Part shown: piece by piece, positions 4,343 through 21,466 of the stretch | Layout: each line of letters opens with the position of its first letter | Position numbering within the stretch: the first letter of the stretch is position 1 | From: an uncultured marine group III euryarchaeote | Lineage (GTDB): Archaea; Thermoplasmatota; Poseidoniia; MGIII; CG-Epi1 | Reading direction: 5' to 3' | Assembly (NCBI GenBank): GCA_902627615.1 | Contig: CACOJW010000001.1 | Span: forward strand, 4,907-68,906 | Length of the DNA stretch: 64,000 bases | Position numbers and translations under genes: made by a program | The notes under the pieces: model-generated | Told to the model about the DNA's origin: nothing | The model's database searches: none | The model's input: the letters and a program-made list of their open reading frames with translations, nothing else

Positions 4343-7300
4343 TTAACGTCTAGACCGATAGCTAATATAAACAAATCCAGCAACCAATACTCCAACAGCT
4401 AGTGCAATTACAGTAAATGAATTATTTTCTTCTTCATCAGTTTCACTTATTGAAAAAGTAGTAGAAGCTTTGTTATTTTCGGTGTTTTGTTCAGTTATAG
4501 CGTTTCCAGGATCTATATGAGCTTTGATAGCGTGAGTACCTCTTGTAGCATTCCATGTCGCACTTACTGTAACTTCACTGTTATTTCCGTCAAATTCTGC
4601 TGTAACCATTTTTATTGGCTCATCGTTAGCATAGAAAACTACTGGGACATAGTGTGCACCAGAATAGTTAACTAAATTTGTTACAGTAGCACTGATAGTT
4701 ACTTCAGTGCCCACAGTAGGGTAATCAGGCGTCCATACGAAATCTCCAGTTTCGATAGTAAAATCAGGCTCAGGCTGTTCAATCGGGTCTACAGTTACTG
4801 CAAATTCACGCCTTAAATCATCAATATCATTATCTTCATAGTCACTCCAAAATATTTCTACAAAGAAGGTTTCCCAAACACCAGGAACTACATTTTCATT
4901 AGGTGTAATTCTCAATTCAACTTCCTTTGTTTCATTTTCTTTCATGCTCAGCTTATTAGGAGTAAATTCGGCACTCCAGCCTTCAGGTATTTCATCTATT
5001 CCTGTTTCAAAAACGACATCTAAAAATCCTAGTGATGTAACGTTAAATGTGAATGTTGCAGTTTGACTTACAGGAATTTCGAATTCATTTGAATCGAGTG
5101 AGACTTCTATTCCTCTCATTAATTGTTTACTGATAGTTTCAATTTGATCAATACCATCAATTTCGTCAGTGATGTTAATGGTTTTATCTAATACAAATGC
5201 GTAATCACTAGTTTCAGATAAATCCTCATAGTTTCCAGAAAATTGGTAGATTCCCGAAGGGACTAGCATGTTTATTTGCCCATTATCGTTTTCCATAGTA
5301 AATGTGAAATTATCTCCACTAATTTCCACATTTCCAAAATTAATATTTTCATTATTATCGGAGTCTTGGTAAGTTACTGTATAATCGATTCCACGAACTA
5401 ATGAAGGACTCAATTCTTGAGCACTTTCTAATTCGAGTGAGCTTATTGACACGTAACTTGTTCCTGAAGTCGTATAGAACCAAGTTTTGTAGACTCCAGC
5501 ATCTAAATAAATTTCATATTTTCCTTCAGAATCTGCAACGGCAGTTCCTTTAATTTCAGTACCGTCAATGTTCCAAATATCTACTTTAGAATCAGACAAT
5601 ATTTCATTCGAATCGGCTATACCATCAAAGTTACGATCGTAGAAGATTGTACCAGAAACTCTAATTTCCCAGTCAGCTTGACGTTTGAAAGTTTGTTGGT
5701 CTCTACCAGCTTTAACGTATATGTTCTGTGAATTTAATTTGAACTGGTCATCACCGTCGTTCAAAGTAGTATCCATTGATATTTCATAGGTTTTAGGGAC
5801 CATTTCAGCAAAGATAATTTGGCCGTTTTCGTCAGTATAGTTGGCAAAAGTTTCTCCAGTTACAGCTTCGAAAATTACCAATCCATTTTCTAAGGGCACA
5901 CTATTTCCAGTTGCATTAATGTAAGTAATTTCCAAAGTTACATTAACTGTCTTTGGAATTAATACAATCTCGTTGTAATAATCTGTATTTCCATCAATTG
6001 TTAGAGTGTTTGTGAAATCTTGATAACCTTCTTCTTTTACTATAACATCATAAATTCCATTTGGAAGATCAACTCTTCCGTATTCTCCCACTCCAAAGAG
6101 CCCTTCATCAGCTTCCGAATTTTCTATGAATACAACTCCTGTGTCTTGTGAAATAAATTGAATTTGCACAGATCTATCGGTTATAACATTATTATCAGCT
6201 TGCGAACGAACGTCTCCTCTTACAAACCCTTCATCTTTTAGTTCAAGATTTTGCACAGCTGGTGCATTTAGATTTAGTATTGATCCATGACTGTAATGCT
6301 TACTTGTAAATCCATCCTGGAAGGTAACGTAGTAGTCACCAGGTAATAGGAAGCCATTGTAACCTGCAAATGTAGTAGATTCAAGGACAGTTACGTTGTT
6401 AAAATCATCTACTGGTGTGAATACTACCATTCCTGTTACAGCTTCATCTAATAATTTAGTTTCACCAGAAACTTGATATCTAAGTTCTGCAGAAACGTCC
6501 CCCATATCGAAATCAGGAGCTCCTATAGGAATGCTCATTTGCCCATGGACCAAATATCGGGTACCACTGTCCTCAAGGCTAAAAGTATACATATATTGTT
6601 CAGGAGGCAATTCCACATTATCGAAATATCCTTCACTATCGGTCGTGAAATTTAGATGGTAAAGTGGATTGTTAATTGGTGTAAATGATAAATTTGCGTT
6701 AATTATTGGATTACCATCGTAAACAAATCTTCCATCAACGCTGGCAGGGATTCTTTTAGCAAGTATTATGATTTCCTCAGTTTTTTGCAAATTTATTTTT
6801 TCAGTTTCCTCTTTGTCTTCTTCAGGACCATAATAAATTGTTTGTAATTCATAACCAAATTTGTTTAGGTCTACTTGGTATTCTCCGTCAGGTAAACTTA
6901 TCTTAGAGATAGGGTCAGTTGCCCATACGTTTAGATCACCTTCAGTAGTAGATAGGTCGATAGTTCCCTCTAGTGTAACAGTTTCTCCCATATGTTCCTC
7001 ATAAAGGATCATCCAGGCGTCATGACCTATACTTGCGGCTAAATCAACATTTTCTAAATTACCATTTATTGTGCCAAGACCTCGGAGCGCAACAAGATTT
7101 TGCTCTGCATTAGCGAGGGCGTGTGAGTAAACATCGTAATCACCTTCAGGAATAATAATTTCATAATTTCCTCCGAAAGTACTTGTCACTGAAGCAACAC
7201 CACTATCTGAAATAAATCGAATCATTTTTCCATCGTATGTGTTTTCTCCAGAATCAGGGTTAAACTTCTTATCTCCATCTAAGTCTTCAAACAATGTACC

Positions 7301-10300
7301 GGTTATAGTATATCCAGGACCCATTGCAGCATCAATTATTCCCGAATGAGTTTGACTGTCTATTCTGTCAAGATAAGCCAAAGTAGTTTGCTCTGTTTGG
7401 TGAACGGTGTAAATGTCATAGGTTCCTTCAGGTACTACTGTTGCGAAATATCCTTCTTCAGTTGTAAAGATGTTGTCGCTGAATTGCTCATTAACATTTC
7501 TTACGGTAATTTGCTCATTAGATATAGGATTATTATTATGAGACAGTACTCCTTCTATTCTAAATCCATCCATTAAAGTTGCGTTAAAGCTTCTGGACTG
7601 ACCTTTTGCAAGTTCGATTTCTTTGGTATTATTAGTCCATCCCGTATAAATGTCGTCAGATTCAAATCTTAAGGTATAATTGCCAGGTAACAGATTGTTA
7701 AAACAGAAAGAGATTGAATCATCTACTGAATCACCAGTACATTGAGACGCGTAATAGTATGTATTCAAAAACGTCTTTTCTACAGTACTTTTGTTGGTTT
7801 CATCGTAAAGTGAGACGGTAACAAGTTGTGAATCAAGTTCACCTGCAAAGATTTTACCCCAAACTATACCCGGTTCTAAGGCCCCTTTTACAGTAACATC
7901 TTGGTTAGCTTGTAAGGCAGCAGTCCCAGTATACGAAGCCAATTCTACAGTATGGCCATCCATTTCAGCAGTAATTTCGTATTCACCAGGTGCTAAATTT
8001 GTAAATTCATAATTCCCATTAGAATCTGTAGTTACAGTTCTGGAAACGTCAGAACGTATGTTTAGAGCAGTAACAGGTACTAATGGTATAGTATCATCAT
8101 CAGAGTCAAATGTTTCGTCTTTATTATTATCCCAGAAGAGTCTACCAGCTATAGAGGATGGCTCAACTTCTAAATCTATATTTATCCGATCTGTAGTTTG
8201 CCTCATTGCCTGTTCTTCAGAAATAATTACATTTTCTTTTCTAACTAAAATATTGTTAGATGATTTAAATATTTTTTCAATATCGGCTTCAGGAGTTCCC
8301 ATTGAAACAGCTAAGGTTAGATTTCCAGCAGGTGCCAGCACACTATACTCTCCATTTTTATCGGTAGTAGCTCTTCCGTGAGGAACTCTGTATTCATCAA
8401 GAACAGTTACATTTGCATTGACTATAGGATCACCGTCAGGCGTAGCTACAGTTCCATAGATTGTAGCCCCATCGTAATATTTTAATATTCTAAGTCCAGA
8501 ATTGTATTGAACTAACTTAAAGTGTGTTAAATTCCAGCCAGGTAAAGGAGGAAGTGATTGGTCTTGTCCAAGTACGCCAGCTATACTCGGTATTCCATCT
8601 TCTATCGGTCTGTCTACATCAATTGCAGACCATCCAATAAATGATCTGAAGAACATAGAATTTAGGAATTTATCTTTGTAAACTAATTCCTGAGATGTGA
8701 CTTGAACATCAGGATTATCTTCTAAAACTTCAATAGCTTCATCAAATGGAAGAGTTTGTCCGTTAGAAAGAGCGGCTTGAACTTCCACGAAATTTCCAAT
8801 GTCATAATCAGCTAGAGTAACGGGCGCATATAGGATACCAGTATTTCCGGCAGAATAAGGCATCAAGCGCGTGTCTGCAGCATAGTAGCGAATTGAATTT
8901 CCAGTTATTTGTTCAACTTCCCACATAAGATCTGCAACATCGTTTTTCTCAATAGTCATTAAGATAGGTTTTCCTGCTCGAATTGCAGCATTTTTAGGAT
9001 GGACGTCTTGGTTACTTCCATCAGCTTTCTTTGGTATGTAATCATCAGGGTTGGAAATTATATTTTCTAGTTTAGTAACGTTTTCTTCAGATAGGTAAAT
9101 GAGTAATTTGGTTCTTATTTCATTATCAAAACTTTCAGATTTACGATCAACTTCAGGTTCTATCAATCTATAAAGTAAAAGAGTCATTGCCTCATGTTCA
9201 GATTGAGATGCAATGAAATTACCAGCGATTTGGTATCCAAACTGGAAGTTATCGGCTACTGTAGGATGTTCACCAATATCAATTGCCCAGAAACCGTAAT
9301 CCCACCATGAGATGAAACCAGGTCTTTTCTCAGGTTCCAAATTTGTATCTTGTTCAGCTAACCATTCTAATCCTTCAATCCAATAATCAGAAGGGAAAGA
9401 AGGCCCAGTATTACCCATATACCATAGTTGGTTAGGATTTTCAATGGCATACATTCCTTCAGTACCATCAGGATATTTAGTTTGATTATTACGTTCATCC
9501 CAATCATATTCTTCAGGCCTTAGGAAATCATAACTTAAAAATTCAAAGATATCAGAATCGTGGTTTTTCTTATCTTCATATGGTACGCCTGCATCATATC
9601 CATAAAATGTATTAGGGAGGAAAATAAATAAGCCAACAAAAAGAGCAATTAATGGTCTTTTCATGTCAAAGCCTTGTCTTAGTCCTCTAATTCTATCGCG
9701 GAAACGATATTGATCTTCACTTTGAGCATCCATGTGCCCAACAACCATAACCAATAGCAGAAGGATTAAAGTTGAAATTAATCCAATTGCAATACTTACT
9801 GTAAAGAATAATATTACACCAGCAAAAATTGAAGCTAATGAGAGCCAATAGAACAGTCCCCCTCTTTTACCCCAGAATGCTTTCCAAGTGGTAATAATTG
9901 CAGGGAAATCGGCCCTTTGAATCAACAACCAAGTCATCCATCCACTAATTAGAGATACAACAGGAGTTGCGTTGAAAATAAAACGAATAGCAGATTGAGC
10001 CATATATATGGAAACAAGAGCCCAAGTCATAACAAACAAATAATCTTTCTTCCATATACTTTGATTGAATAGCTGATAAGCCATCCAAATCACACCGAAG
10101 ATTGCTAACCATATTGAAACAGGTCCAAAAGCAAAGACGAAATCAGCAAATTCAGGAGGCTGGGCCTCAGCAATGGTATTGAATAATTTTGTCCTAACGA
10201 AATATCCTTGACCACTGAAAAGTAAGAATCCGAGATCTTTGAAAACATATGTTAGCAATAAGTAAAGAATTGCAGCAATACCGGTTGACACTCCAATGAC

Positions 10301-11416
10301 TAACAGCCAAGGCAAGTCTCGAGTGGTAACCATAACTAATGACATTAGGACATATCCTAGTAAAATATAGGCGGGAGCTTCCCACCAGGTGTCAACAAAT
10401 CCCATCGTATTATAGTAAGGATATGAAATAATAACGGGCATTGAAAGCGTAACTAATCCTAAAGCTGCAGTTGCCAAGCTATCTACTCTACGGAATGCGT
10501 TTACTAGCATTTGCAATCCTAGATAAATGGCAATGATACCCATGATATATGGGAAACCTTTCCAACTCATGGAAATCATGGTAATAGTCATACCAGCTAA
10601 ACCGGCGTAACCCAGGGCCAATTTTTCCGAATTGACAAATTGACTTATCCCTTTCTTTATTTCATCGCCGTTTCTCCAATCCAAGACCCACTTCTTATCG
10701 TTCGCAACAGTCAAAGCCCTCATGAAGAAGAAATAAGCAGTTGTTCCGAATAATATGATGTAAGAGTCGTGGTCAGCTAGCGCCAAACTAGAATGCCCAA
10801 CGTGTTGTGAGTTTACACCTATGAAAAAAGCGCCAATTATTCCTGCTTCTTTACCAAATTGAGCTCTCCCTATTGCATAAACTGGGAAAATAATCAATGC
10901 ACCATATATTGCTGGTAAAACTTGCATAGACCACCAAACTGATTCTTCGGTATCTCCTCCGAAGAAGGGAGAGAGTGCTAATCCAATAATCGCAATAGAC
11001 CAATCGAATAGAGGCGGCCTGTTGTTGTTGGCCCCATATGGATAGTTAAGCATTGGATCTCTTTCGAGGTGCTCTCCATTTTCGGCAACGTAGTCAACAA
11101 CATGCTTGTGATAGTAAGGGTCACTACCTCCTGTAAGTTGAAAACCGTCTTCAGTTGCAGGTTCTAGAGTCCATGCAGTTCTAATGTAAAGTGAAAAAAG
11201 GAAAATTGCAAGTAAAATAAAAACAGTTGTCCAGTCTACTTTCTCGACTTTACGCGGCATAACTTCACTTTGTTCAGAGGTAGCTCTACCTGAAGCTGAA
11301 GAGAAGCGAGGGCGATAGCGATTTTTTGACTTGGAGTCACGTCTGCGACGTGTTTGTCTTGCCATTGATGTTGTGTCCTTTCGGTGTCCTCTAACAGAAG
11401 ACGGACTGGGCGCCAC
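4343..11416 (-). CDS. aglB: Oligosaccharyltransferase AglB/STT3 fused to a ~1400-aa extracellular beta-sandwich repeat array with a C-terminal TM anchor
   Basis: 2357 aa. The multi-TM N-terminal half carries GSDPYYH in the first loop and the hallmark WWDYGFW (encoded at 9293-9307). From about nt 8470 downward there are many carboxypeptidase-regulatory-like/PEGA-like repeats (e.g. GTVATPDGDPIVNANVTVLDE...TDKNGEYS). A CARDB-like domain follows (TVGTEVTISATVTNL...DPGNAITEQNTENN), then a terminal TM plus RSRR. The track start at 11416 is a GTG. The ATG at 11365 (MARQTRRRR) is a more likely start. Confidence 0.85.
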   Translation of the reverse strand: MAPSPSSVRGHRKDTTSMARQTRRRRDSKSKNRYRPRFSSASGRATSEQSEVMPRKVEKVDWTTVFILLAIFLFSLYIRTAWTLEPATEDGFQLTGGSDPYYHKHVVDYVAENGEHLERDPMLNYPYGANNNRPPLFDWSIAIIGLALSPFFGGDTEESVWWSMQVLPAIYGALIIFPVYAIGRAQFGKEAGIIGAFFIGVNSQHVGHSSLALADHDSYIILFGTTAYFFFMRALTVANDKKWVLDWRNGDEIKKGISQFVNSEKLALGYAGLAGMTITMISMSWKGFPYIMGIIAIYLGLQMLVNAFRRVDSLATAALGLVTLSMPVIISYPYYNTMGFVDTWWEAPAYILLGYVLMSLVMVTTRDLPWLLVIGVSTGIAAILYLLLTYVFKDLGFLLFSGQGYFVRTKLFNTIAEAQPPEFADFVFAFGPVSIWLAIFGVIWMAYQLFNQSIWKKDYLFVMTWALVSIYMAQSAIRFIFNATPVVSLISGWMTWLLIQRADFPAIITTWKAFWGKRGGLFYWLSLASIFAGVILFFTVSIAIGLISTLILLLLVMVVGHMDAQSEDQYRFRDRIRGLRQGFDMKRPLIALFVGLFIFLPNTFYGYDAGVPYEDKKNHDSDIFEFLSYDFLRPEEYDWDERNNQTKYPDGTEGMYAIENPNQLWYMGNTGPSFPSDYWIEGLEWLAEQDTNLEPEKRPGFISWWDYGFWAIDIGEHPTVADNFQFGYQIAGNFIASQSEHEAMTLLLYRLIEPEVDRKSESFDNEIRTKLLIYLSEENVTKLENIISNPDDYIPKKADGSNQDVHPKNAAIRAGKPILMTIEKNDVADLMWEVEQITGNSIRYYAADTRLMPYSAGNTGILYAPVTLADYDIGNFVEVQAALSNGQTLPFDEAIEVLEDNPDVQVTSQELVYKDKFLNSMFFRSFIGWSAIDVDRPIEDGIPSIAGVLGQDQSLPPLPGWNLTHFKLVQYNSGLRILKYYDGATIYGTVATPDGDPIVNANVTVLDEYRVPHGRATTDKNGEYSVLAPAGNLTLAVSMGTPEADIEKIFKSSNNILVRKENVIISEEQAMRQTTDRINIDLEVEPSSIAGRLFWDNNKDETFDSDDDTIPLVPVTALNIRSDVSRTVTTDSNGNYEFTNLAPGEYEITAEMDGHTVELASYTGTAALQANQDVTVKGALEPGIVWGKIFAGELDSQLVTVSLYDETNKSTVEKTFLNTYYYASQCTGDSVDDSISFCFNNLLPGNYTLRFESDDIYTGWTNNTKEIELAKGQSRSFNATLMDGFRIEGVLSHNNNPISNEQITVRNVNEQFSDNIFTTEEGYFATVVPEGTYDIYTVHQTEQTTLAYLDRIDSQTHSGIIDAAMGPGYTITGTLFEDLDGDKKFNPDSGENTYDGKMIRFISDSGVASVTSTFGGNYEIIIPEGDYDVYSHALANAEQNLVALRGLGTINGNLENVDLAASIGHDAWMILYEEHMGETVTLEGTIDLSTTEGDLNVWATDPISKISLPDGEYQVDLNKFGYELQTIYYGPEEDKEETEKINLQKTEEIIILAKRIPASVDGRFVYDGNPIINANLSFTPINNPLYHLNFTTDSEGYFDNVELPPEQYMYTFSLEDSGTRYLVHGQMSIPIGAPDFDMGDVSAELRYQVSGETKLLDEAVTGMVVFTPVDDFNNVTVLESTTFAGYNGFLLPGDYYVTFQDGFTSKHYSHGSILNLNAPAVQNLELKDEGFVRGDVRSQADNNVITDRSVQIQFISQDTGVVFIENSEADEGLFGVGEYGRVDLPNGIYDVIVKEEGYQDFTNTLTIDGNTDYYNEIVLIPKTVNVTLEITYINATGNSVPLENGLVIFEAVTGETFANYTDENGQIIFAEMVPKTYEISMDTTLNDGDDQFKLNSQNIYVKAGRDQQTFKRQADWEIRVSGTIFYDRNFDGIADSNEILSDSKVDIWNIDGTEIKGTAVADSEGKYEIYLDAGVYKTWFYTTSGTSYVSISSLELESAQELSPSLVRGIDYTVTYQDSDNNENINFGNVEISGDNFTFTMENDNGQINMLVPSGIYQFSGNYEDLSETSDYAFVLDKTINITDEIDGIDQIETISKQLMRGIEVSLDSNEFEIPVSQTATFTFNVTSLGFLDVVFETGIDEIPEGWSAEFTPNKLSMKENETKEVELRITPNENVVPGVWETFFVEIFWSDYEDNDIDDLRREFAVTVDPIEQPEPDFTIETGDFVWTPDYPTVGTEVTISATVTNLVNYSGAHYVPVVFYANDEPIKMVTAEFDGNNSEVTVSATWNATRGTHAIKAHIDPGNAITEQNTENNKASTTFSISETDEEENNSFTVIALAVGVLVAGFVYISYRSRR

Positions 11417-11451: not shown

Positions 11452-12741
11452 TTAAACAGAGGGTAGGAGCTTACCGGTACACTCGCCAAAACCAATTCTG
11501 TAATTATCTCCTTGACACCAACCTTTTAGCATCACAGTATCGCCATCTTCAAGAGCTAGTCTTTCTTCACCGTTTGAAAGTTTCAAAGGTTCACTCCATC
11601 CCCAAGTTAGTTCAAGCATAGATCCTCTACTATTTTTCTCAGGACCCGATATGGTTCCACTAGCCAACATATCTCCAGTTCGGAGATTACAACCTGTTGT
11701 TGTATGGTGTACAATTTGTTGATTCATATCCCAGTATAGATAATTGTAATTACTAGATGAAATTAATTCAAAATTATCCATTTTTTCAGATTTAAGGTGA
11801 ATTTCCAAGTTAATATCAAAAGTGCTATCTCGGCTATTCTGCAGATATTCAAGAGGCTTCGGTTCTTGCTTGGGTCCTTTACATCTAAATGGCTCCAACG
11901 CTTCTAGTGTGATTATCCAAGGAGAAATAGTAGTAGCTAGATTTTTGGCTAAAAACGGCCCCAATGGTTGATATTCCCAAGCCTGAATATCTCTAGCAGA
12001 CCAATCATTTACAAGGGCCATACCAAAAATATATTCTTCCGCGTTTTCTATAGAAATACGTTCTCCCAAACTATTTCCAGTACCTATGAATAGTCCCATT
12101 TCAAGTTCAAAATCCATTCTTTTACTATCTCCAAATGAAGGATTTTCTGCACTAGGCAGTTTAGTTTGACCTTTCGGCCTGATAACATCTCCTCCATCAA
12201 GAATTACTGAAGACGCTCGACCATGATATGCAATAGGTAAGTGAAGCCAATTAGGCATCAATGCATTTTCAGGCCCCCTGAATATTGTACCTACGTTTGA
12301 AGCATGTTCTTTTGATGAATAAAAGTCAGTGTAATCTCCTATATCAATAGGAAATTCCATTACAGCTTTTTCCATTGGAATTAAAACTAATTCTCTCAAT
12401 TCTTTATTATCTCTTAGTTTTTCAATGTCTTTATTTAGAAGATGACTAATTACATTTCTAGTATCTTTCCAGGCTTTTCTTCCCAAAGACATGAATGCAT
12501 TTAATGTAGGTTCATGGAAAACTTCAGTTCCTTCTACTTCGGTATTTTGAAAATATCCCGCTTCGTCTAAGTATGCTAAATCTAAGATATAATCTCCAAT
12601 TGCAGTAGCTACGTGTAGATCACCACCACCCTTTGGTGAATAGACTCCAAAGGGGATATTTTGGATTGGAAAATCTGAGTTTTCATCAACTTCAATCCAT
12701 GATTTTAGATTTGAATCGTGTGTTTTGTCCATTATGTCCAT
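11452..12741 (-). CDS. fahA: Fumarylacetoacetase (FAH), long form with N-terminal FAH domain
   Basis: 429 aa. The N-terminal domain (SWIEVDENSDFPIQNIPFGVY) and the C-terminal FAH fold are present. It is the last gene of the hppD-hmgA-X-fahA string and overlaps the upstream gene by 10 nt. Confidence 0.85.
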   Translation of the reverse strand: MDIMDKTHDSNLKSWIEVDENSDFPIQNIPFGVYSPKGGGDLHVATAIGDYILDLAYLDEAGYFQNTEVEGTEVFHEPTLNAFMSLGRKAWKDTRNVISHLLNKDIEKLRDNKELRELVLIPMEKAVMEFPIDIGDYTDFYSSKEHASNVGTIFRGPENALMPNWLHLPIAYHGRASSVILDGGDVIRPKGQTKLPSAENPSFGDSKRMDFELEMGLFIGTGNSLGERISIENAEEYIFGMALVNDWSARDIQAWEYQPLGPFLAKNLATTISPWIITLEALEPFRCKGPKQEPKPLEYLQNSRDSTFDINLEIHLKSEKMDNFELISSSNYNYLYWDMNQQIVHHTTTGCNLRTGDMLASGTISGPEKNSRGSMLELTWGWSEPLKLSNGEERLALEDGDTVMLKGWCQGDNYRIGFGECTGKLLPSV

Positions 12742-13739
12742 CCTAGTTTTGATAAGTCATCTATAGGCTCTTGAAAAGAGCAACTGCCGTATGAAATCAT
12801 ACCTTTTTCACGTACGACTTTAATTTTTTTAGTTTCAATTTCAAATTCAGTATCTCTGTCATCCCTTACTTTCCAAATTAGGGAATCGTTAGTAAAATTA
12901 AAATTTTCAGCATTTTGATCATCAATCATATGAGATAATAGAATAAACATTCGATATTTTTCTTGTGAGTTTTTTGGTTTTGGGAAGGTTGTTGCAAAAA
13001 TGCCTGCCCCAAAAGTATTGATGAATCCATGCATATACTCATCGTATTCTTCTGCAAAATGACGTATTGGATGATGTAACCCAGCAGTAAATTTCATTGG
13101 TACCTCCGCAATTACACATGTTTGTATCATGGCAGCAATCTGTTCAACTGTAGGAAATGCTTCCTTTACCACACCTCCACATCTTAATTTTATTCCTGCA
13201 TTTTTTATTTTAGATATTATTTGGACAGTAGGTATGATTTCATGATCCCAAGAACTTTCGTCCACTTCTGTTGAGTAGTTCATATCGATGTAAGGTAGCT
13301 GCGTAAATTCATGGTAATGTGTTAAATTAGAATCATTAAGTAGCGTAGCAGCCTTTACCATAGTCTTTTTGGATGGAGAATTGGAGGGCATTTTACATTC
13401 AATAACATCAATTTCAATCTTTTCTTTATGTTTCTTTCTATAATCATTAATATTGTTAATGTTTTTATTAATATTTTTTAAATACTCGTCGTCGTTATTT
13501 CCACCACCACCTAAGACTGACAGCCTCAGAGGCCCTATATCTTCGAAAAGAGGTAGAAATTGATCTAAATTTTCTAATTTTGAAGTATGAATTATAAAAC
13601 GGCTTAACATTTTAGAATTAGCACTCTTTAATTGTAAGATATATTCATCAATTGCTTCATTTAGAGGTAGTTCAGCAGGCGGGAAGAGGCCAGCATAATC
13701 TATCAGGCCTTCCATGAAAGCTCGAAGACTTTCTTTCAT
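12732..13739 (-). CDS. Conserved-looking hypothetical protein embedded in the homogentisate operon
   Basis: 335 aa with no TM segment or signal peptide. Notable motifs are LIDYAGLFPPAELP, KLRCGG and KFTAGLHHPIRH. It starts 5 nt after the hmgA stop and overlaps fahA by 10 nt. I cannot assign a family. Confidence 0.6.
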   Translation of the reverse strand: MKESLRAFMEGLIDYAGLFPPAELPLNEAIDEYILQLKSANSKMLSRFIIHTSKLENLDQFLPLFEDIGPLRLSVLGGGGNNDDEYLKNINKNINNINDYRKKHKEKIEIDVIECKMPSNSPSKKTMVKAATLLNDSNLTHYHEFTQLPYIDMNYSTEVDESSWDHEIIPTVQIISKIKNAGIKLRCGGVVKEAFPTVEQIAAMIQTCVIAEVPMKFTAGLHHPIRHFAEEYDEYMHGFINTFGAGIFATTFPKPKNSQEKYRMFILLSHMIDDQNAENFNFTNDSLIWKVRDDRDTEFEIETKKIKVVREKGMISYGSCSFQEPIDDLSKLGWT

Positions 13740-13744
13740 TGATT

Positions 13745-14929
13745 TTATTCGCCTAATGCTTCCTTGTATCCTTCACCATCAAGCCAAGATTTTGAATAAT
13801 TAGGGTCTTCAACATTGATTGCATATTTAGCTACTTTGAGAGGATAATGAGTATCAACCATGACTGCCAATTCGTCAGTCCATTTAGCACCTATTGAGGC
13901 TTCATATTTCCCAGGATGTGGGCCATGGGTTAATCCATCAGGATGTAGTGTCATGGATCCAAATTCAACACCTTTTCTTGACATGAATTCTTTCGAATCG
14001 TAATAGATAACCTCATCGGACATTATGTTAGCGTGATTGTAGGGTGCAGGTATTGCGTTTTTATCAAAATCGAAAGGTCTTGGGCAAAATGAGCAGACCA
14101 CAAATCGATCACTTGCAAATGTTTGGTGGACAGGCGGAGGTTCGTGAATTCTACCTACTATAGGCTCAAAATCATGAATGCTGAAAGCAAATGGGTAGTA
14201 ATATCCGTCCCATCCAACAACATCACATGGATGATGTCCTAGAGTAACTTCAGTAAATCTATTGCGTTGTTTTACGATAATTTTGAACTCCCCTTTTTCA
14301 TCATGTGGTACTAATTCATCAGGCCCTCTAAAATCGCGCTCAGAATATGGACTTCTTTCGATTATTTGACCATATTCATTTCGATATCTTTTAGGAGTTC
14401 TTACTTCACCAGGCGATTCTACAATTAGAAGAGAATGTTCTTCATCATTCATTATATATCGGTGTAAAATTCCTCTCGGAATAACTAGGTAATCTCCAGC
14501 ATTATACTTCATGTTTCCAAAAGCGGTTTCTAAAGTTCCACTTCCTTGACTGACGTATATTATCTCATCACCTTGTGCATTACGATAGTAATAATCATCA
14601 TTTTTGTCAGGATAACTCATCATCATCACAACATCATTGTTGAATAAGAAAGGTTTTCGATCCATAATTGCGCTTCCGCCTTTCTCTGCTCTATTGGTGT
14701 AAAAATGCCTCATCCTCAGACTTTTGTCATCATCTTCTTCGAGAGTAAAATGTCCGATTTCTTTAGTCGATAAAACTTCAGTTGGAGGGTAAATATGGTA
14801 AAGAAGTGATGAAGGCCCTACAAATCCCTTATTCCCCTTCAGTTCTTCATGGTAAATATTTCCATTATCATCTCTAAAAACGGTGTGTCTTTTCTTAGCT
14901 ACTTTTCCTAATTTATGATATCTGTGCAT
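13745..14929 (-). CDS. hmgA: Homogentisate 1,2-dioxygenase (short cupin form)
   Basis: 394 aa with HGD-like motifs (HEPPPVHQTF, MTLHPDGLTHGPHPG). Its ATG shares nt 14929 with the hppD stop (TAATG). Confidence 0.8.
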   Translation of the reverse strand: MHRYHKLGKVAKKRHTVFRDDNGNIYHEELKGNKGFVGPSSLLYHIYPPTEVLSTKEIGHFTLEEDDDKSLRMRHFYTNRAEKGGSAIMDRKPFLFNNDVVMMMSYPDKNDDYYYRNAQGDEIIYVSQGSGTLETAFGNMKYNAGDYLVIPRGILHRYIMNDEEHSLLIVESPGEVRTPKRYRNEYGQIIERSPYSERDFRGPDELVPHDEKGEFKIIVKQRNRFTEVTLGHHPCDVVGWDGYYYPFAFSIHDFEPIVGRIHEPPPVHQTFASDRFVVCSFCPRPFDFDKNAIPAPYNHANIMSDEVIYYDSKEFMSRKGVEFGSMTLHPDGLTHGPHPGKYEASIGAKWTDELAVMVDTHYPLKVAKYAINVEDPNYSKSWLDGEGYKEALGE

Positions 14930-16017
14930 TACAGGTTACCTCTTTCGGCTTGATGCCTTTCAATTGCTTCGAACAATGCTTTAAAGTTTCCAACTCCAAA
15001 GCCTTTCGATCCTTTTCTTTGTATAACTTCATAGAATACAGTAGGCCTGTCCTCTACGGGTTTAGTGAATAATTGTAATAGATATCCTTCATCATCTCGG
15101 TCAACTAAGATTTTTAATTTGCGGAGAACTTCAATATCTTCATCAATAACACCTACTCGCTCAGTTAAATCTTCATAGTAAGTGTCAGGAACTTCTAAAA
15201 ATTCAACACCATTTTCTTTTAGTTTCCCAATAGTTTTTATGATATCACTTGTTAAAAGTGCAAGATGCTGTACACCAGCCCCCTCATAAAATTCTAAGTA
15301 TTCATCGATTTGCGATTTTCTTTTACCCTCTGCAGGTTCATTAATCGGAAATTTGATTCTTCCATTATCACTTTCCATCACTTTTGACATGAGTGCAGAA
15401 TATTCAGTAGAAATATCATCATCGCTAAATTCTTGTATTTGTGAAAAGCCCATAGTATCAGCATAGAAGTTGACCCAATATTCCATTTTACCTAATTCCA
15501 CATTTCCGACAATGTGGTCTATGAATTTTAGCCCCACATTATTCCCTTCAATTTTACTTTCTACAAATCCAGGCAGAAAAGGTCCATTGTAATCGTCATA
15601 TGATATGAAAGAATGTACAGTTTCTCCGTAGGTAAATATTGAAGCTCTTGTTACACTACCATTTTCATCACTAACAGTTTCAGGCTCCATAGCACTCTTG
15701 GCTCCACGGGCTACACAGGCTTCGTAGCATGCTTTTGCGTCATCCACATGAAATGCAATATCCTTTACACCATCGCCATGCTTTCGAATATGCTCAGCTA
15801 ATTCATTATTTCCATTCAGCGGAGTAGAGAAGACCATTCTGATTCTACCTTGTCCTAAAACATAGCTAGCCTTTTCCCTGTCTCCAGTTTCCAAACCAGA
15901 ATAAGCAACTTGATCATATCCAAATGCCTTTCTGTAATAGTAGGCAGCCTGCTTTGCATTACCCACATAAAACTCAACGTGATGTACGGCTTTAAGTGGA
16001 ACTGGATCTTCACTCAT
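14929..16017 (-). CDS. hppD: 4-hydroxyphenylpyruvate dioxygenase
   Basis: 362 aa. It has two VOC modules, the N-terminal [16 protein letters not shown] and the characteristic C-terminus [21 protein letters not shown]. Confidence 0.9.
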
Positions 16018-16031
16018 TGATTATTTCACTT

Positions 16032-16049
16032 TTAGGAATTATGATTCCT
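16032..16049 (-). promoter_or_regulatory. Palindrome at the predicted start site of the homogentisate operon
   Basis: TAGGAAT-TATG-ATTCCTA has 7-bp arms. A TATA-like TTATAT on the minus strand (plus coordinates 16063-16068) lies ~26 nt upstream of the palindrome centre. The hppD ATG is at 16017. Confidence 0.3.
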
Positions 16050-16094
16050 ATTAAGTCCGGAGATATAAGATGATATGCATTATTAAAGCCTCGT

Positions 16095-18167
16095 TTAAGC
16101 ACTATTTTGATAATAACTATACCAATCATAATTGTAGTTAAAATCAGAGGCAGGATCATTTGATTCTAATAATAGTTCCCAGTCCCCTATCATTTCACCT
16201 TCATTTGTTTCGAAAATAAGCTCTTGAGTTTCGCCGTCGTTCAAGAGTAAGTCTTGTTCGAACACAGTTCCAGAAGGGCTATTGATTGTGACAGTAATGT
16301 CAGATTGTACAAAAGGTAGCCCACTGTTTCCAATTATGTTGATGTAAATGCTTACATTTTCAATATATGGATTAATTGTTGCAGGAACAGTCTCGTCAGC
16401 ACCTCCATTTACGCTACTCTCGCCTTCAACAAAGCTGTTGACACGTACTTGTTCAAATGCTACACTTTGTCTTTCCTCTGCATCTTTAGCAGTTAATACA
16501 ACAAAGTATAGTCCACCATCAGCCCAAGAATGATTCACCGTTTCTCCACTTGTTGTAGTTCCGTCTCCGAAGTCCCATTCATATGTTACAAAATTACCGT
16601 TAGATGTGGATGCATCGAATATAAATTCCTCGCCATTCCACCCACTTGTTCCACTTGCCTCTATATTGGCATCTAATATTACAGGGTCAACACCAACAAT
16701 TCTTGGCCCAATAAGTTGCCAAACAACTAAGAAAACAACTGTAAAGGCTAGAACTGCGACTAAATTATCTACAATTTCTTCTTTCCTTTGTTCGGTTAGA
16801 CCGGTTTTGACTTTGTCAAGTACTCCGGTAATTCCATCTGCAAAAATAAAACCACCATCAAGAGGAACAGAAGGTAAAGCGTTTGTTAATCCTACCATTA
16901 AGTTAAGCCAAAATATCCAATAGAATGAATTGGCAAGAATCCAAAAGAGATTATCTGGTATGATTCCAACAGCTCCACTGGGCTCAAAAATTGAAGTAAA
17001 ATGGTCAGGAAACGGTTGTAATTTAGCAAAAGGTAATGAGATGTACAGTAAGACATTTTCAGTAGGATTTGCTAAGTTATTAGTTACAAATTCGGGGTTT
17101 TCGGCAGCAACGCCCATGAATCCTTTTCCAGACATCCAAGGTTCATATAAATCAGGATAATACTTCAGATAATAACTTCCTTTATCAGATAAAGTTACAG
17201 CATAAGTTTCAGGAACTCCTGCATTCATAACCGAGACGTTGACCGTTTCTCCTGTATATGTGTCATTCATTATACGCTGCCAGTCATCGCTATTTTCTAC
17301 AGGTTCTTCGTTGATAGATGTTAGAAGCATCCATGGTTCTAAACCCGCTTCAGCGCCACCATAGTCAGTACTTACACTGTATAGTAATAATCCGTCTTCA
17401 GCAGGTGCCAGCGAGGCAACCATTACAGAGGAAAAGAGGAACGAAAAAATAAGTGCAATGACCATATTACTTCCGGGTCCGGCAGCATAGAGCCTCATTC
17501 TCTCCCATTTTTTCATAGCTTTCATTTCTTCTTCATCAGGTTCAACAAACGCCCCTACGGGAAAAATGAAAAGTAAAAGTCCTAAAGCTTTAACTTTAAC
17601 GTTGGCAACGCGGCTCAAAATTCCGTGACTAAATTCATGAATAACCATTGCGATGACGAGCGCTAAAATTCCATACCACAGAGGAATTACAGGATTTACT
17701 CCAGGTAATCCAATCATCATTTTAGGAGATACTGCAGAAGTTTTGGGAATCTGCCAAGCAAGAGTTGCTTGCCAAAGTAATAGTGAAAACATAAGAATCA
17801 TAATTACAAAAACGGTAACTACCCAAACATCACCCACTCTTCTCCAAAATGGCTTATTTTGAGATATCTTTTCTATGAAATCTTTCCCCCAGTCAGTTCT
17901 CCACATGAGAAAAGAACGTCCCCAAACTAGATCCATATTATATTTCGCTAAATATCCTTCATTGTCAGCCCATCTAACAGCAGTTACCCAAGCAGCGACG
18001 AATAGAGCAAAAGAATACCATCCGAGGTAAAGACAGAATAATAAGAAAAATATTAATTTAATGTGTCTACGGACATGAACTTCAGCAGGCATACCTGTTA
18101 ATTCAGGTAATATTTCTACTTCTTCTTCGATGGCTTCCCCTTCGGTTTCTTCTTTTTTCGTTGTCAT
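16095..18167 (-). CDS. Site-2 protease family (M50) membrane metalloprotease with PDZ-like insert and C-terminal PKD domain
   Basis: 690 aa with HEFSHG in a TM helix and multiple TMs. A PDZ-like segment is present (LTSINEEPVENSDDWQ...). After the last TM there is a PKD domain (YEWDFGDGTTTSGETVNHSW...VVLTAKD) and a further beta-rich region. Confidence 0.8.
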   Translation of the reverse strand: MTTKKEETEGEAIEEEVEILPELTGMPAEVHVRRHIKLIFFLLFCLYLGWYSFALFVAAWVTAVRWADNEGYLAKYNMDLVWGRSFLMWRTDWGKDFIEKISQNKPFWRRVGDVWVVTVFVIMILMFSLLLWQATLAWQIPKTSAVSPKMMIGLPGVNPVIPLWYGILALVIAMVIHEFSHGILSRVANVKVKALGLLLFIFPVGAFVEPDEEEMKAMKKWERMRLYAAGPGSNMVIALIFSFLFSSVMVASLAPAEDGLLLYSVSTDYGGAEAGLEPWMLLTSINEEPVENSDDWQRIMNDTYTGETVNVSVMNAGVPETYAVTLSDKGSYYLKYYPDLYEPWMSGKGFMGVAAENPEFVTNNLANPTENVLLYISLPFAKLQPFPDHFTSIFEPSGAVGIIPDNLFWILANSFYWIFWLNLMVGLTNALPSVPLDGGFIFADGITGVLDKVKTGLTEQRKEEIVDNLVAVLAFTVVFLVVWQLIGPRIVGVDPVILDANIEASGTSGWNGEEFIFDASTSNGNFVTYEWDFGDGTTTSGETVNHSWADGGLYFVVLTAKDAEERQSVAFEQVRVNSFVEGESSVNGGADETVPATINPYIENVSIYINIIGNSGLPFVQSDITVTINSPSGTVFEQDLLLNDGETQELIFETNEGEMIGDWELLLESNDPASDFNYNYDWYSYYQNSA

Positions 18168-18227: not shown

Positions 18228-18908
18228 ATGGCCAAGAAAAAAGGTAAACGCGAAGAAATCTTCACGTTTCCTGAATTTAATAGAGATGAATATAGGACTA
18301 AGGAAATCCGAGATTCCAAGGTTACACTGTTCTCTGTATTTTATGCCTTAGTAGTGGCAGTAGTCTGTTATTCGCTAGTAAGAATGGCAGGAATAGGTGG
18401 TTGGGTAACTATTATTGGATTTATCGCACCTTTTGGTTTAACTAGAGTTCTTCCTTTAATTTTTGATACAAGTGAGTTTGAGCGAAAGAACTGGATTGGC
18501 CCAATGTTCATGTCTTTCATGGCTTGGTTAGGATTCATGATATTACTCTCCAACCCTCCATTCAATGATATTGCTAAACCTAAATTTCAAGGTGTTGATA
18601 TGTATGTTGAAATGGATGGTAAATGGAATGAAACAATGGAAATAGGTGAAGATACTCCTTTTGTTTTAGTGGTATCCGTAAAAGATAATTGGGAAGTAGA
18701 AACTGTAACTATTACCTCTGGTGCAGCAGGCCTTAATTCACAATCTATGCCCAAACTAGAACAGAATAATGAGTATAATATAACTGGAAATAGTTGGCAT
18801 TATCATGAATTTGATGGTTTGAAAAGTGGATCCTATTCGTTTACAATAAATGCAGCAGATTCTGAAGGTAATTCGAATTCAAAGAGAATAAGTATAACGA
18901 TTGGTTAG
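18228..18908 (+). CDS. Hypothetical membrane protein (3 TM) with extracellular Ig-like C-terminal domain
   Basis: 226 aa with three hydrophobic helices followed by a beta-rich domain. It has no recognisable catalytic motif. Confidence 0.5.
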   Translation: MAKKKGKREEIFTFPEFNRDEYRTKEIRDSKVTLFSVFYALVVAVVCYSLVRMAGIGGWVTIIGFIAPFGLTRVLPLIFDTSEFERKNWIGPMFMSFMAWLGFMILLSNPPFNDIAKPKFQGVDMYVEMDGKWNETMEIGEDTPFVLVVSVKDNWEVETVTITSGAAGLNSQSMPKLEQNNEYNITGNSWHYHEFDGLKSGSYSFTINAADSEGNSNSKRISITIG

Positions 18909-21466
18909 AGTAACTTCTGCTGGATTTCATGTAATTTTTCTAAGGCTTGAAGTGGCGTTAGGTTCATTAAATCCATTTTTTTAATTTCAGATACAACTGG
19001 ATTTTCTTTAGTTTCACTTCTAGCACCAAAATTAGCACCAAAAACAGATTGGACTGGGCCCGTTTTAGAAACTTCAATTGTAGATCCTTCCTCTAAATTA
19101 TTCAGAACCTTTCTAGCTCTTACTAATACTTCCTCAGGAACTCCAGCCATTTTTGCTACATGTATACCAAATGAAGCATCTGTAGGTCCTTCAGCAACTC
19201 TATGAAGTAGTTTCAATTCATGACCATCTTCTTTTGCTTGCATGTGGCAATTCACAGAGCGATCCAATATTTTTGCCACATCAGTTAATTGATGGTAATG
19301 AGTTGCAAACAAAGTTTTCACACCCTTACCGGCATGCAATTCTTCCGATACAGCCCATGCCAGCGCTAATCCATCAAAAGTTGATGTTCCTCTTCCTATT
19401 TCATCCAATAGTACTAGGCTGTTAGGAGTTGCATTCCGTAAAATGTTTGCTAATTCCAACATTTCCACCATGAATGTAGAGTGACCATGTACTAAATCGT
19501 CATGAGCTCCTACACGAGTGAATACTCTGTCTACCATACCCAATCTAGCCGAAGATGCTGGAACAAAGCAACCAGCTTGTGCCATTACGCTAATTAGTGC
19601 GGTTTGGCGCATATAGGTAGATTTACCACCCATATTAGGCCCCGTCAAGATCATAAGTTGCCTTTGTTTGTTATCTAACTGTAAATTATTAGGAATATAT
19701 TGACCTTCTCTAAGAACTTCAATAACAGGATGTCTTCCATCAGAAATGGACAAGGTTCCATCATCAGACATTTCAGGTCTAACATAGTTATTGATTTGGC
19801 TAACTTCAGCAAGAGAGCCAATAGCATCAATTCTAGAAACAGCCATCGTTGTAGCTTGCAATGAGCCTAAAAATTCTAAAATCCACTCTCTCAATTCTTT
19901 GAATAGTTCAGTTTCAAGAGCTTGGGAACGCTCGTCAGCTCTTAGAATAGAGGTTTCTTTTTCTTTTAATTCAGGAGTAATATATCGGTCACCAGCAGCT
20001 ACAGTTTGTTTACGATGATAATTTTCAGGTACTTTTTTTGCATATGCTTTTGGAACTTCAATGTAATAACCAAAAACACGATTGTATCCAATCTTTAATT
20101 TTGGAATTCCAGTTTTTTCTTTTTCTTCATTTTCTAATGAAGCAACCCATTCTCTTCCACTGGTAGCTTTTGACCTTAAGTCATCTAATTCTTTTGAGTA
20201 TCCTTTCTTGAAAATTCCACCGTCTCTCAGAACGGCAGGTGGATCTTCTACGATAGCTTCTTCTAGTTTTTTAGAAACTTGCTTGTGTACATCGATTGAT
20301 TTGACAAGTTTTTTCATTAATTTTGATTTCAAAGGTTCTTCACTTAGAAATTGCTTGAGATCTTTTACTGTATTTAGACTAGATTTTAAACTATCCAAAT
20401 CTCTAGGTGAAATAGATCCGTGTCCTAGTCGAGATAGTAATCTTTCAACATCTTGGAAACCTTTCAAAATATCTCTAATTTCTCTGCGACTAAGAGTATT
20501 GTCAAATAATTCTTGAACGGCATCATGTCTTTCGTTTATTCGTTCCAAATCGTATAGTGGCCGTAGTAACCAATCTTTCATTCTACGGGAACCTCCTGCC
20601 GTTGAACTTTTGTTCAGAACTGCAAACAAGGTATCTTTGGATGAGTCACTAATAGTACGTACAATTTCTAAATTTCTTAGAGTTACAGCATCCAATGTCA
20701 TTGTTTTAGCCTTAACCATTAAGGATGGAGGCCTTAGATGCGGTAAGTCACTGAATTGAGTCTCTATTGCATAAGAAAGAATTGCACCAGCAGCAGTTAC
20801 GGCCATTGGGTATGTATTCAATTCTTCAACACTTCCAAATCTTCCTTCTAATGCTTTTTTGGAAACGGGATACATCCATGAATCTGCCTTGCATGGTGTA
20901 ATATTTACACCTAAAGCTTTCATCCAGTTTTCAACGTCTACATTACCTTCAGGAACAATAACCTCAGCAGGCGCGTATCTCATCATTTCAGATTCCAAAG
21001 ATTCTCTGTCTTTGAATTGGGCTGTAGCGAATTCACCCGTTGAAATGTCCATTATCGCCAATCCAATTCCATCATCGGTCTCATTTATGGATGCTAAGAA
21101 ATTGTTAGAATTACTTAGCATAGTTCCTTCAACAACAGTTCCAGGACTTACGATTCTAGTAACTCCTCTTCTTACAATTCCTTTTGAGCTCTTCGGATCT
21201 TCAAGTTGCTCGCAAATTGCAACCCTATGCCCTTTTTTGATTAATTTTCCAAGATAGCCGTCAAGAGCATGGTAGGGTATTCCAGCTAATGGGATGGGCT
21301 TGTCGGAATTTTTGTCTCTAGCAGTTAAGGTGATATCAAGATCCTTAGCAGCTATTATCGCATCATCTCCAAAAGTTTCGTAGAAATCTCCCATTCTAAA
21401 TAATAAAATGGAATCTGGATTTTCACGTTTTATGGCGTGGTACTGACGCATCATTGGACTAGACAA
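18905..21466 (-). CDS. mutS: DNA mismatch repair protein MutS (bacterial MutS1 type)
   Basis: 853 aa. It has the N-terminal mismatch-binding region (MMRQYHAIK...GDFYETFGDDA), the Walker A motif GPNMGGKSTYMRQ and the STF motif DEIGRGTSTFDG. Confidence 0.95.
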   Translation of the reverse strand: MSSPMMRQYHAIKRENPDSILLFRMGDFYETFGDDAIIAAKDLDITLTARDKNSDKPIPLAGIPYHALDGYLGKLIKKGHRVAICEQLEDPKSSKGIVRRGVTRIVSPGTVVEGTMLSNSNNFLASINETDDGIGLAIMDISTGEFATAQFKDRESLESEMMRYAPAEVIVPEGNVDVENWMKALGVNITPCKADSWMYPVSKKALEGRFGSVEELNTYPMAVTAAGAILSYAIETQFSDLPHLRPPSLMVKAKTMTLDAVTLRNLEIVRTISDSSKDTLFAVLNKSSTAGGSRRMKDWLLRPLYDLERINERHDAVQELFDNTLSRREIRDILKGFQDVERLLSRLGHGSISPRDLDSLKSSLNTVKDLKQFLSEEPLKSKLMKKLVKSIDVHKQVSKKLEEAIVEDPPAVLRDGGIFKKGYSKELDDLRSKATSGREWVASLENEEKEKTGIPKLKIGYNRVFGYYIEVPKAYAKKVPENYHRKQTVAAGDRYITPELKEKETSILRADERSQALETELFKELREWILEFLGSLQATTMAVSRIDAIGSLAEVSQINNYVRPEMSDDGTLSISDGRHPVIEVLREGQYIPNNLQLDNKQRQLMILTGPNMGGKSTYMRQTALISVMAQAGCFVPASSARLGMVDRVFTRVGAHDDLVHGHSTFMVEMLELANILRNATPNSLVLLDEIGRGTSTFDGLALAWAVSEELHAGKGVKTLFATHYHQLTDVAKILDRSVNCHMQAKEDGHELKLLHRVAEGPTDASFGIHVAKMAGVPEEVLVRARKVLNNLEEGSTIEVSKTGPVQSVFGANFGARSETKENPVVSEIKKMDLMNLTPLQALEKLHEIQQKLL

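Follow-up and report, generated by a model that had tools for sequence, protein, structure and literature searches.

Tyrosine and phenylalanine are broken down aerobically mainly through the homogentisate route, whose maleylacetoacetate isomerase is, to our knowledge, known only as a glutathione-dependent glutathione S-transferase (GST). In this zeta-class enzyme (MaiA, HmgC or GSTZ1; EC 5.2.1.2), the thiol of glutathione adds at C2 of the substrate, and because no other type of isomerase is known to us, an annotation gap exists at this step in Gram-positives, many environmental phyla, and archaea. Precedents for replacing a GST-type isomerase where glutathione is absent are MDMPI, a mycothiol-dependent enzyme of Corynebacterium, and the L-cysteine-dependent BagL, both with the DinB fold, which perform an analogous reaction on a gentisate-pathway intermediate. 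Maleate cis-trans isomerase, a cofactor-independent member of the Asp/Glu racemase superfamily, carries out the same type of reaction with an enzyme cysteine as the nucleophile on the maleyl group. Here we consider an unnamed 335-aa protein, hereafter X, encoded at 12732–13739 on the minus strand of a 64-kb window (the whole stretch analyzed, from contig CACOJW010000001.1 of an uncultured marine euryarchaeote). X is a predicted TIM-barrel protein and a candidate glutathione-independent maleylacetoacetate isomerase: it is probably the cis-trans isomerase of a homogentisate module, replacing MaiA, the zeta-class GST that depends on glutathione, without being homologous to it. Novelty lies not in the reaction or the pathway but in the protein family, in the use of its fold for such chemistry, and in the mechanism that it probably follows.

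The operon consists of four minus-strand open reading frames (ORFs) in an uninterrupted run. Its first gene, hppD (14929–16017), encodes a 362-aa 4-hydroxyphenylpyruvate dioxygenase (HPPD) with two Glyoxalase domains and a TIGR01263 score of 467 bits (cutoff 277). It is followed by hmgA (13745–14929), encoding a 394-aa homogentisate 1,2-dioxygenase (HmgA) of a divergent short type with the Pfam domains HgmA_N and HgmA_C, then by X, and finally by fahA (11452–12741). The fahA product is a long, eukaryote-like fumarylacetoacetase (FAH) of 429 aa that scores 597 bits against TIGR01266 (cutoff 375) and, in a Pfam scan, carries both FAA_hydrolase_N (PF09298) and FAA_hydrolase (PF01557). An earlier sequence-only reading of this locus had placed HPPD, HmgA, and FAH in pathway order on the minus strand, which Pfam and NCBIfam scans confirmed, and had located the ORF for X between hmgA and fahA, where it indeed lies. 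Read directly, the junctions are as follows: the hppD stop and hmgA start share base 14929, and the TAA stop of hmgA is separated by 5 nt from the ATG of X. The 3′ end of X (GGA TGG ACA TAA) meets the 5′ end of fahA (ATG GAC ATA ATG) within ATGGACATAATG, giving an overlap of 10 nt if the first ATG is used (12732–12741, minus strand; ATGGACATAA) or a TAATG overlap if the second is used. This arrangement suggests that fahA is translationally coupled to X.

The association of X with FAH extends far beyond this archaeon. We collected 80 X loci from species-representative genomes, an X-centered sample, and searched their ORFs with the HPPD, HmgA, and FAH of the window. A long-type FAH was found 3′ of X in 71 of 82 loci. 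Among the 73 genome loci with at least 600 nt of downstream sequence, and after correcting for FAH starts called as overlapping X, FAH lay directly downstream of X on the same strand in 66, with one more at 2 kb. The X–FAH loci span about 15 bacterial phyla plus archaea of marine group II (MGII). The groups with X loci include Chloroflexota, Bacillota, Rhodothermales/Balneolales, Chlorobiota/Ignavibacteria, Verrucomicrobiota, Planctomycetota, Acidobacteriota, Eremiobacterota, Armatimonadota, Nitrospirota, Calditrichota, and Neomarinimicrobiota, among others. When neighboring ORFs were clustered, the only near-universal clusters were X itself (80 loci) and FAH (68), followed by short HmgA (18) and HPPD (13), and no GST-like cluster appeared among the neighbors of X. 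No third conserved partner emerged besides FAH, HmgA, and HPPD: a cystathionine-gamma-synthase-like protein and a glutamate dehydrogenase were lineage-specific neighbors.

Gene order is conserved as well. MGII, a Chloroflexi locus (L008), and a Chthoniobacterales locus (L057) all show the order hmgA-X-fahA, and homologs at only 20–24% identity keep the arrangement: an HmgA-like cupin, X, and fahA in Rhodococcus rhodochrous, hmgA-X-fahA with overlapping genes in Pseudonocardia, and an X-fahA pair in Streptomyces. In the loci collected here, the co-occurrence of X with hmgA and fahA, part of a check offered by the sequence-only reading, is seen most strongly for FAH. The coupling of X to FAH is tight and ancient, and same-strand, often overlapping adjacency that is kept in some 15 phyla and at identities as low as 20% implies selection for co-expression. 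It is very improbable that X is unrelated to tyrosine catabolism and that its position is a conserved but meaningless accident. Such an accident would accommodate the five X loci that lack an adjacent FAH and the many X–FAH pairs, a majority, without hmgA or hppD within 8 kb, but it is difficult to reconcile with adjacency of this kind over such a span of phyla and sequence divergence, and the breadth of the synteny effectively excludes a chance association.

Plasmid-borne operons bear on which step X might perform. In Priestia megaterium, plasmid pBM-Cp-1-2 (L083, 4452–13411) carries hppD, X, fahA, a hisC-like aminotransferase gene, hmgA, and an amino acid permease gene, beside an Lrp/AsnC regulator, and plasmids of both P. 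megaterium and P. aryabhattai (six Priestia plasmids in all) bear the tyrosine operon. In this operon every pathway step except the isomerase has a named gene, and X is the only gene without a name. Plasmid-borne family members include WP_223269024.1 of Priestia and WP_159419503.1 of Rhodococcus. P. megaterium is a culturable Bacillota host with the complete operon on a plasmid, and would be ideal for a genetic test of X. In the cyanobacterium Kovacikia minuta, a megaplasmid (L089, 3006–8198) has X and fahA as an overlapping pair, with hmgA and hppD pointing away from it in divergent orientation.

The HmgA that accompanies X appears to be a consistent subtype. In the window, both Pfam domains of HmgA pass their gathering thresholds (HgmA_N, 55.4 bits versus 20.2; HgmA_C, 25.2 versus 21), but the protein falls short of the NCBIfam equivalog TIGR01015 (80 bits versus a cutoff of 511), and for this reason we regard it as a divergent short subtype. 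X-linked HmgA is always of this type (384–400 aa, with TIGR01015 scores of 59–80 bits against the same cutoff), as exemplified by the window gene (13745–14929, minus strand) and those at L083 10540–11694 and L085 4791–5993. Short HmgA is found together with X in 18 genome loci and also in Priestia, Rhodococcus, and Kovacikia, whereas the maiA-linked hmgA of Yoonia encodes a canonical protein of 453 aa. It seems that short HmgA travels with X and long FAH as one module.

Comparison with MaiA is informative on several counts. X shares with MaiA its pathway slot and a genomic neighborhood that includes fahA and hmgA (seen for MaiA in Yoonia and Sphingobium), and the two probably also share the same overall reaction and the same idea of thiol addition, rotation, and elimination. 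They differ in that X has no sequence similarity to MaiA and no match to GST or maiA models at E ≤ 1 in Pfam or NCBIfam, in length (335 aa versus about 212 aa), and in fold, since MaiA combines a thioredoxin-like fold with an all-helical domain while the model of X is a (beta/alpha)8 barrel. X is also probably glutathione-free, and the phyletic ranges of the two proteins are complementary. A phmmer search with Yoonia MaiA, taken from a canonical hmgA-maiA-fahA cluster, gave no match at E ≤ 10, either in the window of 64 kb or in the X loci, which total about 1.1 Mb.

X and maiA are also complementary on FAH-bearing plasmids. X is present on 21 of 302 FAH-matching plasmids, from Priestia (6), Streptomyces (8), Rhodococcus (2), Pseudonocardia (2), Nonomuraea, Tsukamurella, and Kovacikia, that is, all from Gram-positives save for one cyanobacterium. 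In a sample of 60 records spread over the whole FAH ranking of these 302, all four Gram-positive plasmids with a long FAH carry X, as opposed to none of about 46 proteobacterial ones; on some of the latter maiA abuts fahA, for example as fahA|maiA in Sphingobium. Other Gram-positive FAH matches on plasmids are short "FAH family" proteins rather than fumarylacetoacetases.

As a protein, X falls outside named families. Searches of Pfam, NCBIfam, and PDB sequences, both singly and by profile, yielded no significant match, in keeping with the description of X in the sequence-only reading as a non-GST protein of unknown family. The best matches were noise (CdhD, E = 0.026; ribulose-phosphate epimerase, 0.04; glucanotransferase, 0.14), and fifteen distant homologs, Gram-positive ones included, likewise had no Pfam or NCBIfam match. 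The family itself is large: a word-indexed search found 4138 relatives, a profile search run exhaustively over 1.84 billion cluster representatives found 4657 clusters (50% identity) at E ≤ 0.001 and 1374 at E ≤ 1e-30, with a single representative standing for the whole MGII clade, and a one-genome-per-species scan confirmed matches in at least 596 species genomes. Relatives at up to 82% identity and a genome locus at 67% are labeled Poseidoniia, Thermoplasmatota, or Euryarchaeota, labels by which the window would come from a Poseidoniia (MGII) archaeon. None of Pfam, NCBIfam, RefSeq, JGI, and ENA gives the family a name; all source names are "hypothetical protein" save two odd ones, and no member has a precomputed Pfam domain. 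In full-text literature on glutathione-independent or missing maleylacetoacetate isomerases, Gram-positive homogentisate pathways, TIM-barrel isomerases, and MGII, we found no description of the X family and none of a glutathione-independent maleylacetoacetate isomerase.

The two odd names belong to P0268 and P0364. P0268 (391 aa, JGI), named "RNA polymerase sigma factor," has a real Sigma70_r4 match at residues 180–230, ahead of the family match, in which residues 251–389 align to residues 180–335 of X. P0364 bears the name "AbrB/MazE antitoxin." Both names are probably the result of merged gene calls or annotation transfer errors.

The structural model of X is enzyme-like. An AlphaFold2 model from a shallow alignment had a mean predicted local distance difference test (pLDDT) score of 81, and one from an 84-sequence alignment (32–81% identity) reached a pLDDT of 94.7 and a predicted template modeling (TM) score of 0.93. 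The model is a (beta/alpha)8 or TIM barrel, with strands beta-1 to beta-8 at residues 13–15, 45–51, 71–76, 108–116, 140–144, 181–186, 215–218, and 314–319, and an extra beta-hairpin region at 280–302. A fold search on such a model had been another suggested check, and in Foldseek against the PDB the top matches were Escherichia coli deoxyribose-phosphate aldolase (DERA) and its engineered derivatives (probability 1.00, E ~4e-5), with TM scores of 0.41–0.50 normalized to the query and 0.52–0.64 to the target, and identity of at most 14%. The next matches were carboxyltransferase (DRE-TIM) barrels, with TM scores of 0.28–0.40, and fructose-bisphosphate aldolases. Since the resemblance to DERA is generic and is not matched by a profile relationship, we regard X as a TIM barrel with no close solved relative.

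Conservation was assessed in a family alignment of 263 sequences ranging from MGII to Actinomycetota. Fully conserved in all of them are D14, P20, P21, E114, K184, R186, G188, P196, K216, T218, G220, H222, G238, G318, and C320, while N241 and P325 have one exception each. In the model, D14 is at beta-1, E114 on beta-4, K184 and R186 on beta-6, and K216 on beta-7; the loop that follows beta-7 holds H222, and C320 comes immediately behind beta-8. This placement would correspond to the usual active-site layout of a TIM barrel. With a high-confidence barrel and invariant Lys, Arg, His, Glu, Asp, and Cys residues, X appears enzyme-like. The conserved Cys/His motifs flagged from sequence are thus real in most of their positions (K184, R186, G188, K216, T218, G220, and H222 are invariant), but not in C187, the cysteine of KLRCGG, which is conserved in 77% of sequences and replaced by Thr in 20%, nor strictly in H223 (98%). 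The accompanying idea that a protein cysteine serves as nucleophile needs a different residue: C187 is not invariant, whereas C320, within the motif GSCSF, is a fully invariant cysteine.

Two family assignments suggested by fold lack support. X is not a member of the DeoC/DERA family, as it has no Pfam DeoC match and an hhalign probability of 0.4% against an E. coli DERA sequence, and we keep DERA only as an analogy of fold and mechanism. The analogy is that E114, K184, and K216 of X, on beta-4, beta-6, and beta-7, mirror, by strand position only, the strand order of the D102, K167, and K201 triad of DERA. Engineered DERA performs iminium-activated Michael additions, according to the title of PDB entry 7p76. 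X differs in being about 85 residues longer, in its hairpin insert at 280–302, and in having no phosphate-sugar context. Membership of the DRE-TIM metallolyases (HMGL-like) is likewise not supported: there is no Pfam match, the TM scores are 0.28–0.40, and although D14 is present, H222-H223 forms HH rather than HxH.

These features suggest how X might work within a module of HPPD, short-type HmgA, X, and long-type FAH. X would take 4-maleylacetoacetate from HmgA and pass 4-fumarylacetoacetate to FAH, with which it would be co-translated and might physically associate. In the mechanism that we infer, R186, K184, K216, and H222 would bind the two carboxylates of the dianionic enone and polarize the C4 carbonyl; the thiolate of C320, standing in for the glutathione thiol, would add to C2 of the enone; and after rotation about the C2–C3 bond, elimination of the thiol would give the trans product. 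Maleate isomerase offers a precedent for such a role of C320, though its fold and sequence are unrelated, its substrate is different, and it has two catalytic cysteines compared with one invariant Cys and two Lys in X. In a variant, K184, with K216 and E114 laid out like K167, K201, and D102 of DERA, could form an iminium at the C4 ketone and thereby activate the alkene, as an alternative or in addition to the thiol route. X may instead work by a proton-shuttle (dienol) mechanism. A further-reaching proposal, which we put forward only tentatively, is that X founds a new family of cofactor-independent TIM-barrel cis-trans isomerases, with an aldolase-like Lys/Lys/Glu site, which would form an iminium or strongly polarize the carbonyl at C4 of the enone, and an invariant C320 in place of the glutathione thiol. 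On this proposal the family would supply the principal maleylacetoacetate isomerase of lineages other than Proteobacteria and eukaryotes, among them MGII archaea, Bacillota, Actinomycetota, Chloroflexota, Verrucomicrobiota, and relatives of Bacteroidota.

Whether X requires a thiol cofactor may be considered in light of thiol distributions. Genes for glutathione synthesis are confined to Proteobacteria, Cyanobacteria, and Eukarya, whereas bacillithiol is associated with Firmicutes, Bacteroidetes, Chlorobi, Ignavibacteriae, Acidobacteria, and Deinococcus-Thermus, and mycothiol with Actinobacteria; the thiols of the phyla that bear X are bacillithiol, mycothiol, or unknown ones (PMC6282198). X occurs mainly in lineages that make no glutathione and whose thiols differ in chemistry, and the presence of one X family among them argues against dependence on any single thiol. 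The sequence-only reading had reasoned from the general lack of glutathione in archaea, and this rationale holds as a tendency but not as an absolute rule, which is ruled out by Kovacikia, a member of a glutathione-producing lineage that nevertheless has the full module. Its central proposal, which puts X in the place of the maleylacetoacetate isomerase with no need for glutathione, is strongly supported by the comparative context as a predicted function.

It is unlikely that X is an isomerase that needs a small-molecule thiol such as bacillithiol, mycothiol, cysteine, or CoA, in which case C320 would be structural or cofactor-binding. The genomic evidence fits such an enzyme equally well, and all maleylacetoacetate and maleylpyruvate isomerases known to us use a free thiol. 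X-bearing lineages are, in addition, rich in bacillithiol or mycothiol (PMC6282198). However, the same residues are invariant in bacillithiol users, mycothiol users, a cyanobacterium, and MGII, which is hard to fit with recognition of a specific thiol, a point weakened by the fact that cysteine or CoA would be universal, and no thiol-binding fold or motif was recognized in X with Pfam, NCBIfam, or Foldseek. Nor does X resemble the thiol-dependent enzymes of the gentisate pathway: MDMPI and BagL need a free thiol and a metal and belong to another substrate pathway, X and five Gram-positive homologs have no MDMPI_N/DinB match in Pfam, the fold of X is a TIM barrel, and X is linked to a long-type fumarylacetoacetase rather than to a fumarylpyruvate hydrolase.

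Several observations weigh against X being the maleylacetoacetate isomerase. Adjacency of X and FAH denotes coupling to FAH and does not say which reaction X performs. Five loci (L011, L019, L061, L075, and L078) have X with no FAH in the 3–8 kb downstream, and the Bacillota order hppD-X-fahA-...-hmgA means that gene order is not always pathway order. For this archaeon's genome, the absence of maiA applies to the 64-kb window. The cyanobacterial module implies that absence of glutathione is not the whole reason for X, and the active-site clustering and DERA-like triad are drawn from strand positions. The full-text literature held nothing on any X family member, biochemistry and genetics included. 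Lastly, two related Streptomyces plasmids carry a DinB/MDMPI gene ("maleylpyruvate isomerase N-terminal domain") about 4 kb upstream of X-fahA (L086 985–1641; L087 1–510), which could be a competing isomerase there or one of many such paralogs. A 2024 Streptomyces study listed a gene of the mycothiol-type maleylpyruvate isomerase family among candidates for tyrosine catabolism (PMC11012174). As a recurrent neighbor of X, a DinB/MDMPI isomerase can be dismissed: it is absent from the window and from all other fetched X loci. Separately, the orphan locus L011 is labeled Alcaligenaceae and is the only proteobacterial match.

The first of these points leads to the possibility that X performs another FAH-linked reaction or is a partner subunit of FAH, with isomerization being spontaneous, catalyzed by another protein, or bypassed. 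X could, for example, be a keto-enol tautomerase acting on maleyl- or fumarylacetoacetate, or process acetoacetate through a Schiff-base lysine as a decarboxylase or aldolase-type enzyme. That the conserved unit is X–FAH (66/73 loci) rather than HmgA–X (18/82) would agree with such a role, as would the nearest folds, which are Schiff-base class I aldolases, together with the invariant lysines of X on beta-6 and beta-7, and the MDMPI-type gene near X-fahA in Streptomyces could then supply the isomerase. We nevertheless consider this explanation rather improbable. It would leave an obligatory step unfilled in otherwise complete operons, it does not account for the complementarity of X and maiA on FAH-bearing plasmids, and the MDMPI-type gene is missing from the window and every other locus fetched. 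Acetoacetate decarboxylation would waste carbon in a catabolic module, and the invariant, catalytic-type residues speak against a purely structural role as a partner subunit.

If X is indeed the isomerase, its family would close a decades-old hole in tyrosine catabolism and represent a new fold, and probably new chemistry, for enzymatic cis-trans isomerization; there is a real chance that it is a new class of cis-trans isomerase. Genome annotation could then recognize tyrosine catabolism correctly in Poseidoniia, which are abundant archaea of the ocean, and in phyla from soil, and metabolic models would improve. The assignment is directly testable, since culturable strains of P. megaterium bear the complete operon on plasmids.

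Upstream of hppD is a 77-nt AT-rich intergenic stretch (16018–16094, minus strand; beginning TTTAATAATGCATATCATCTTATAT), the likely candidate for the operon's promoter region. Beyond it lie genes for an M50 site-2 protease fused to PKD domains (16095–18167, minus strand), MutS (18905–21466, minus strand), and a DUF255 thioredoxin-like protein with a glycoside-hydrolase-like (alpha/alpha)6 region (21545–23581, plus strand). These flanks recur in other MGII-labeled contigs, making the locus syntenic within the order. Directly downstream of the operon, a gene at 4343–11416 (minus strand) encodes a protein of 2357 aa whose N-terminus is a multi-pass membrane region. The L002 ortholog has STT3/AglB oligosaccharyltransferase domains and, behind them, numerous CarboxypepD_reg, PEGA, and CARDB repeats, an architecture corresponding to an unusually large AglB fusion. 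The window encodes other large proteins that are probably located at the cell surface: one of 3177 aa with RCC1-like beta-propeller repeats and a He_PIG Ig domain (27941–37474, plus strand), a PKD-repeat protein of 1414 aa (45032–49276, plus strand), and one of 892 aa with a PNGase F C-terminal domain (40604–43282, minus strand).

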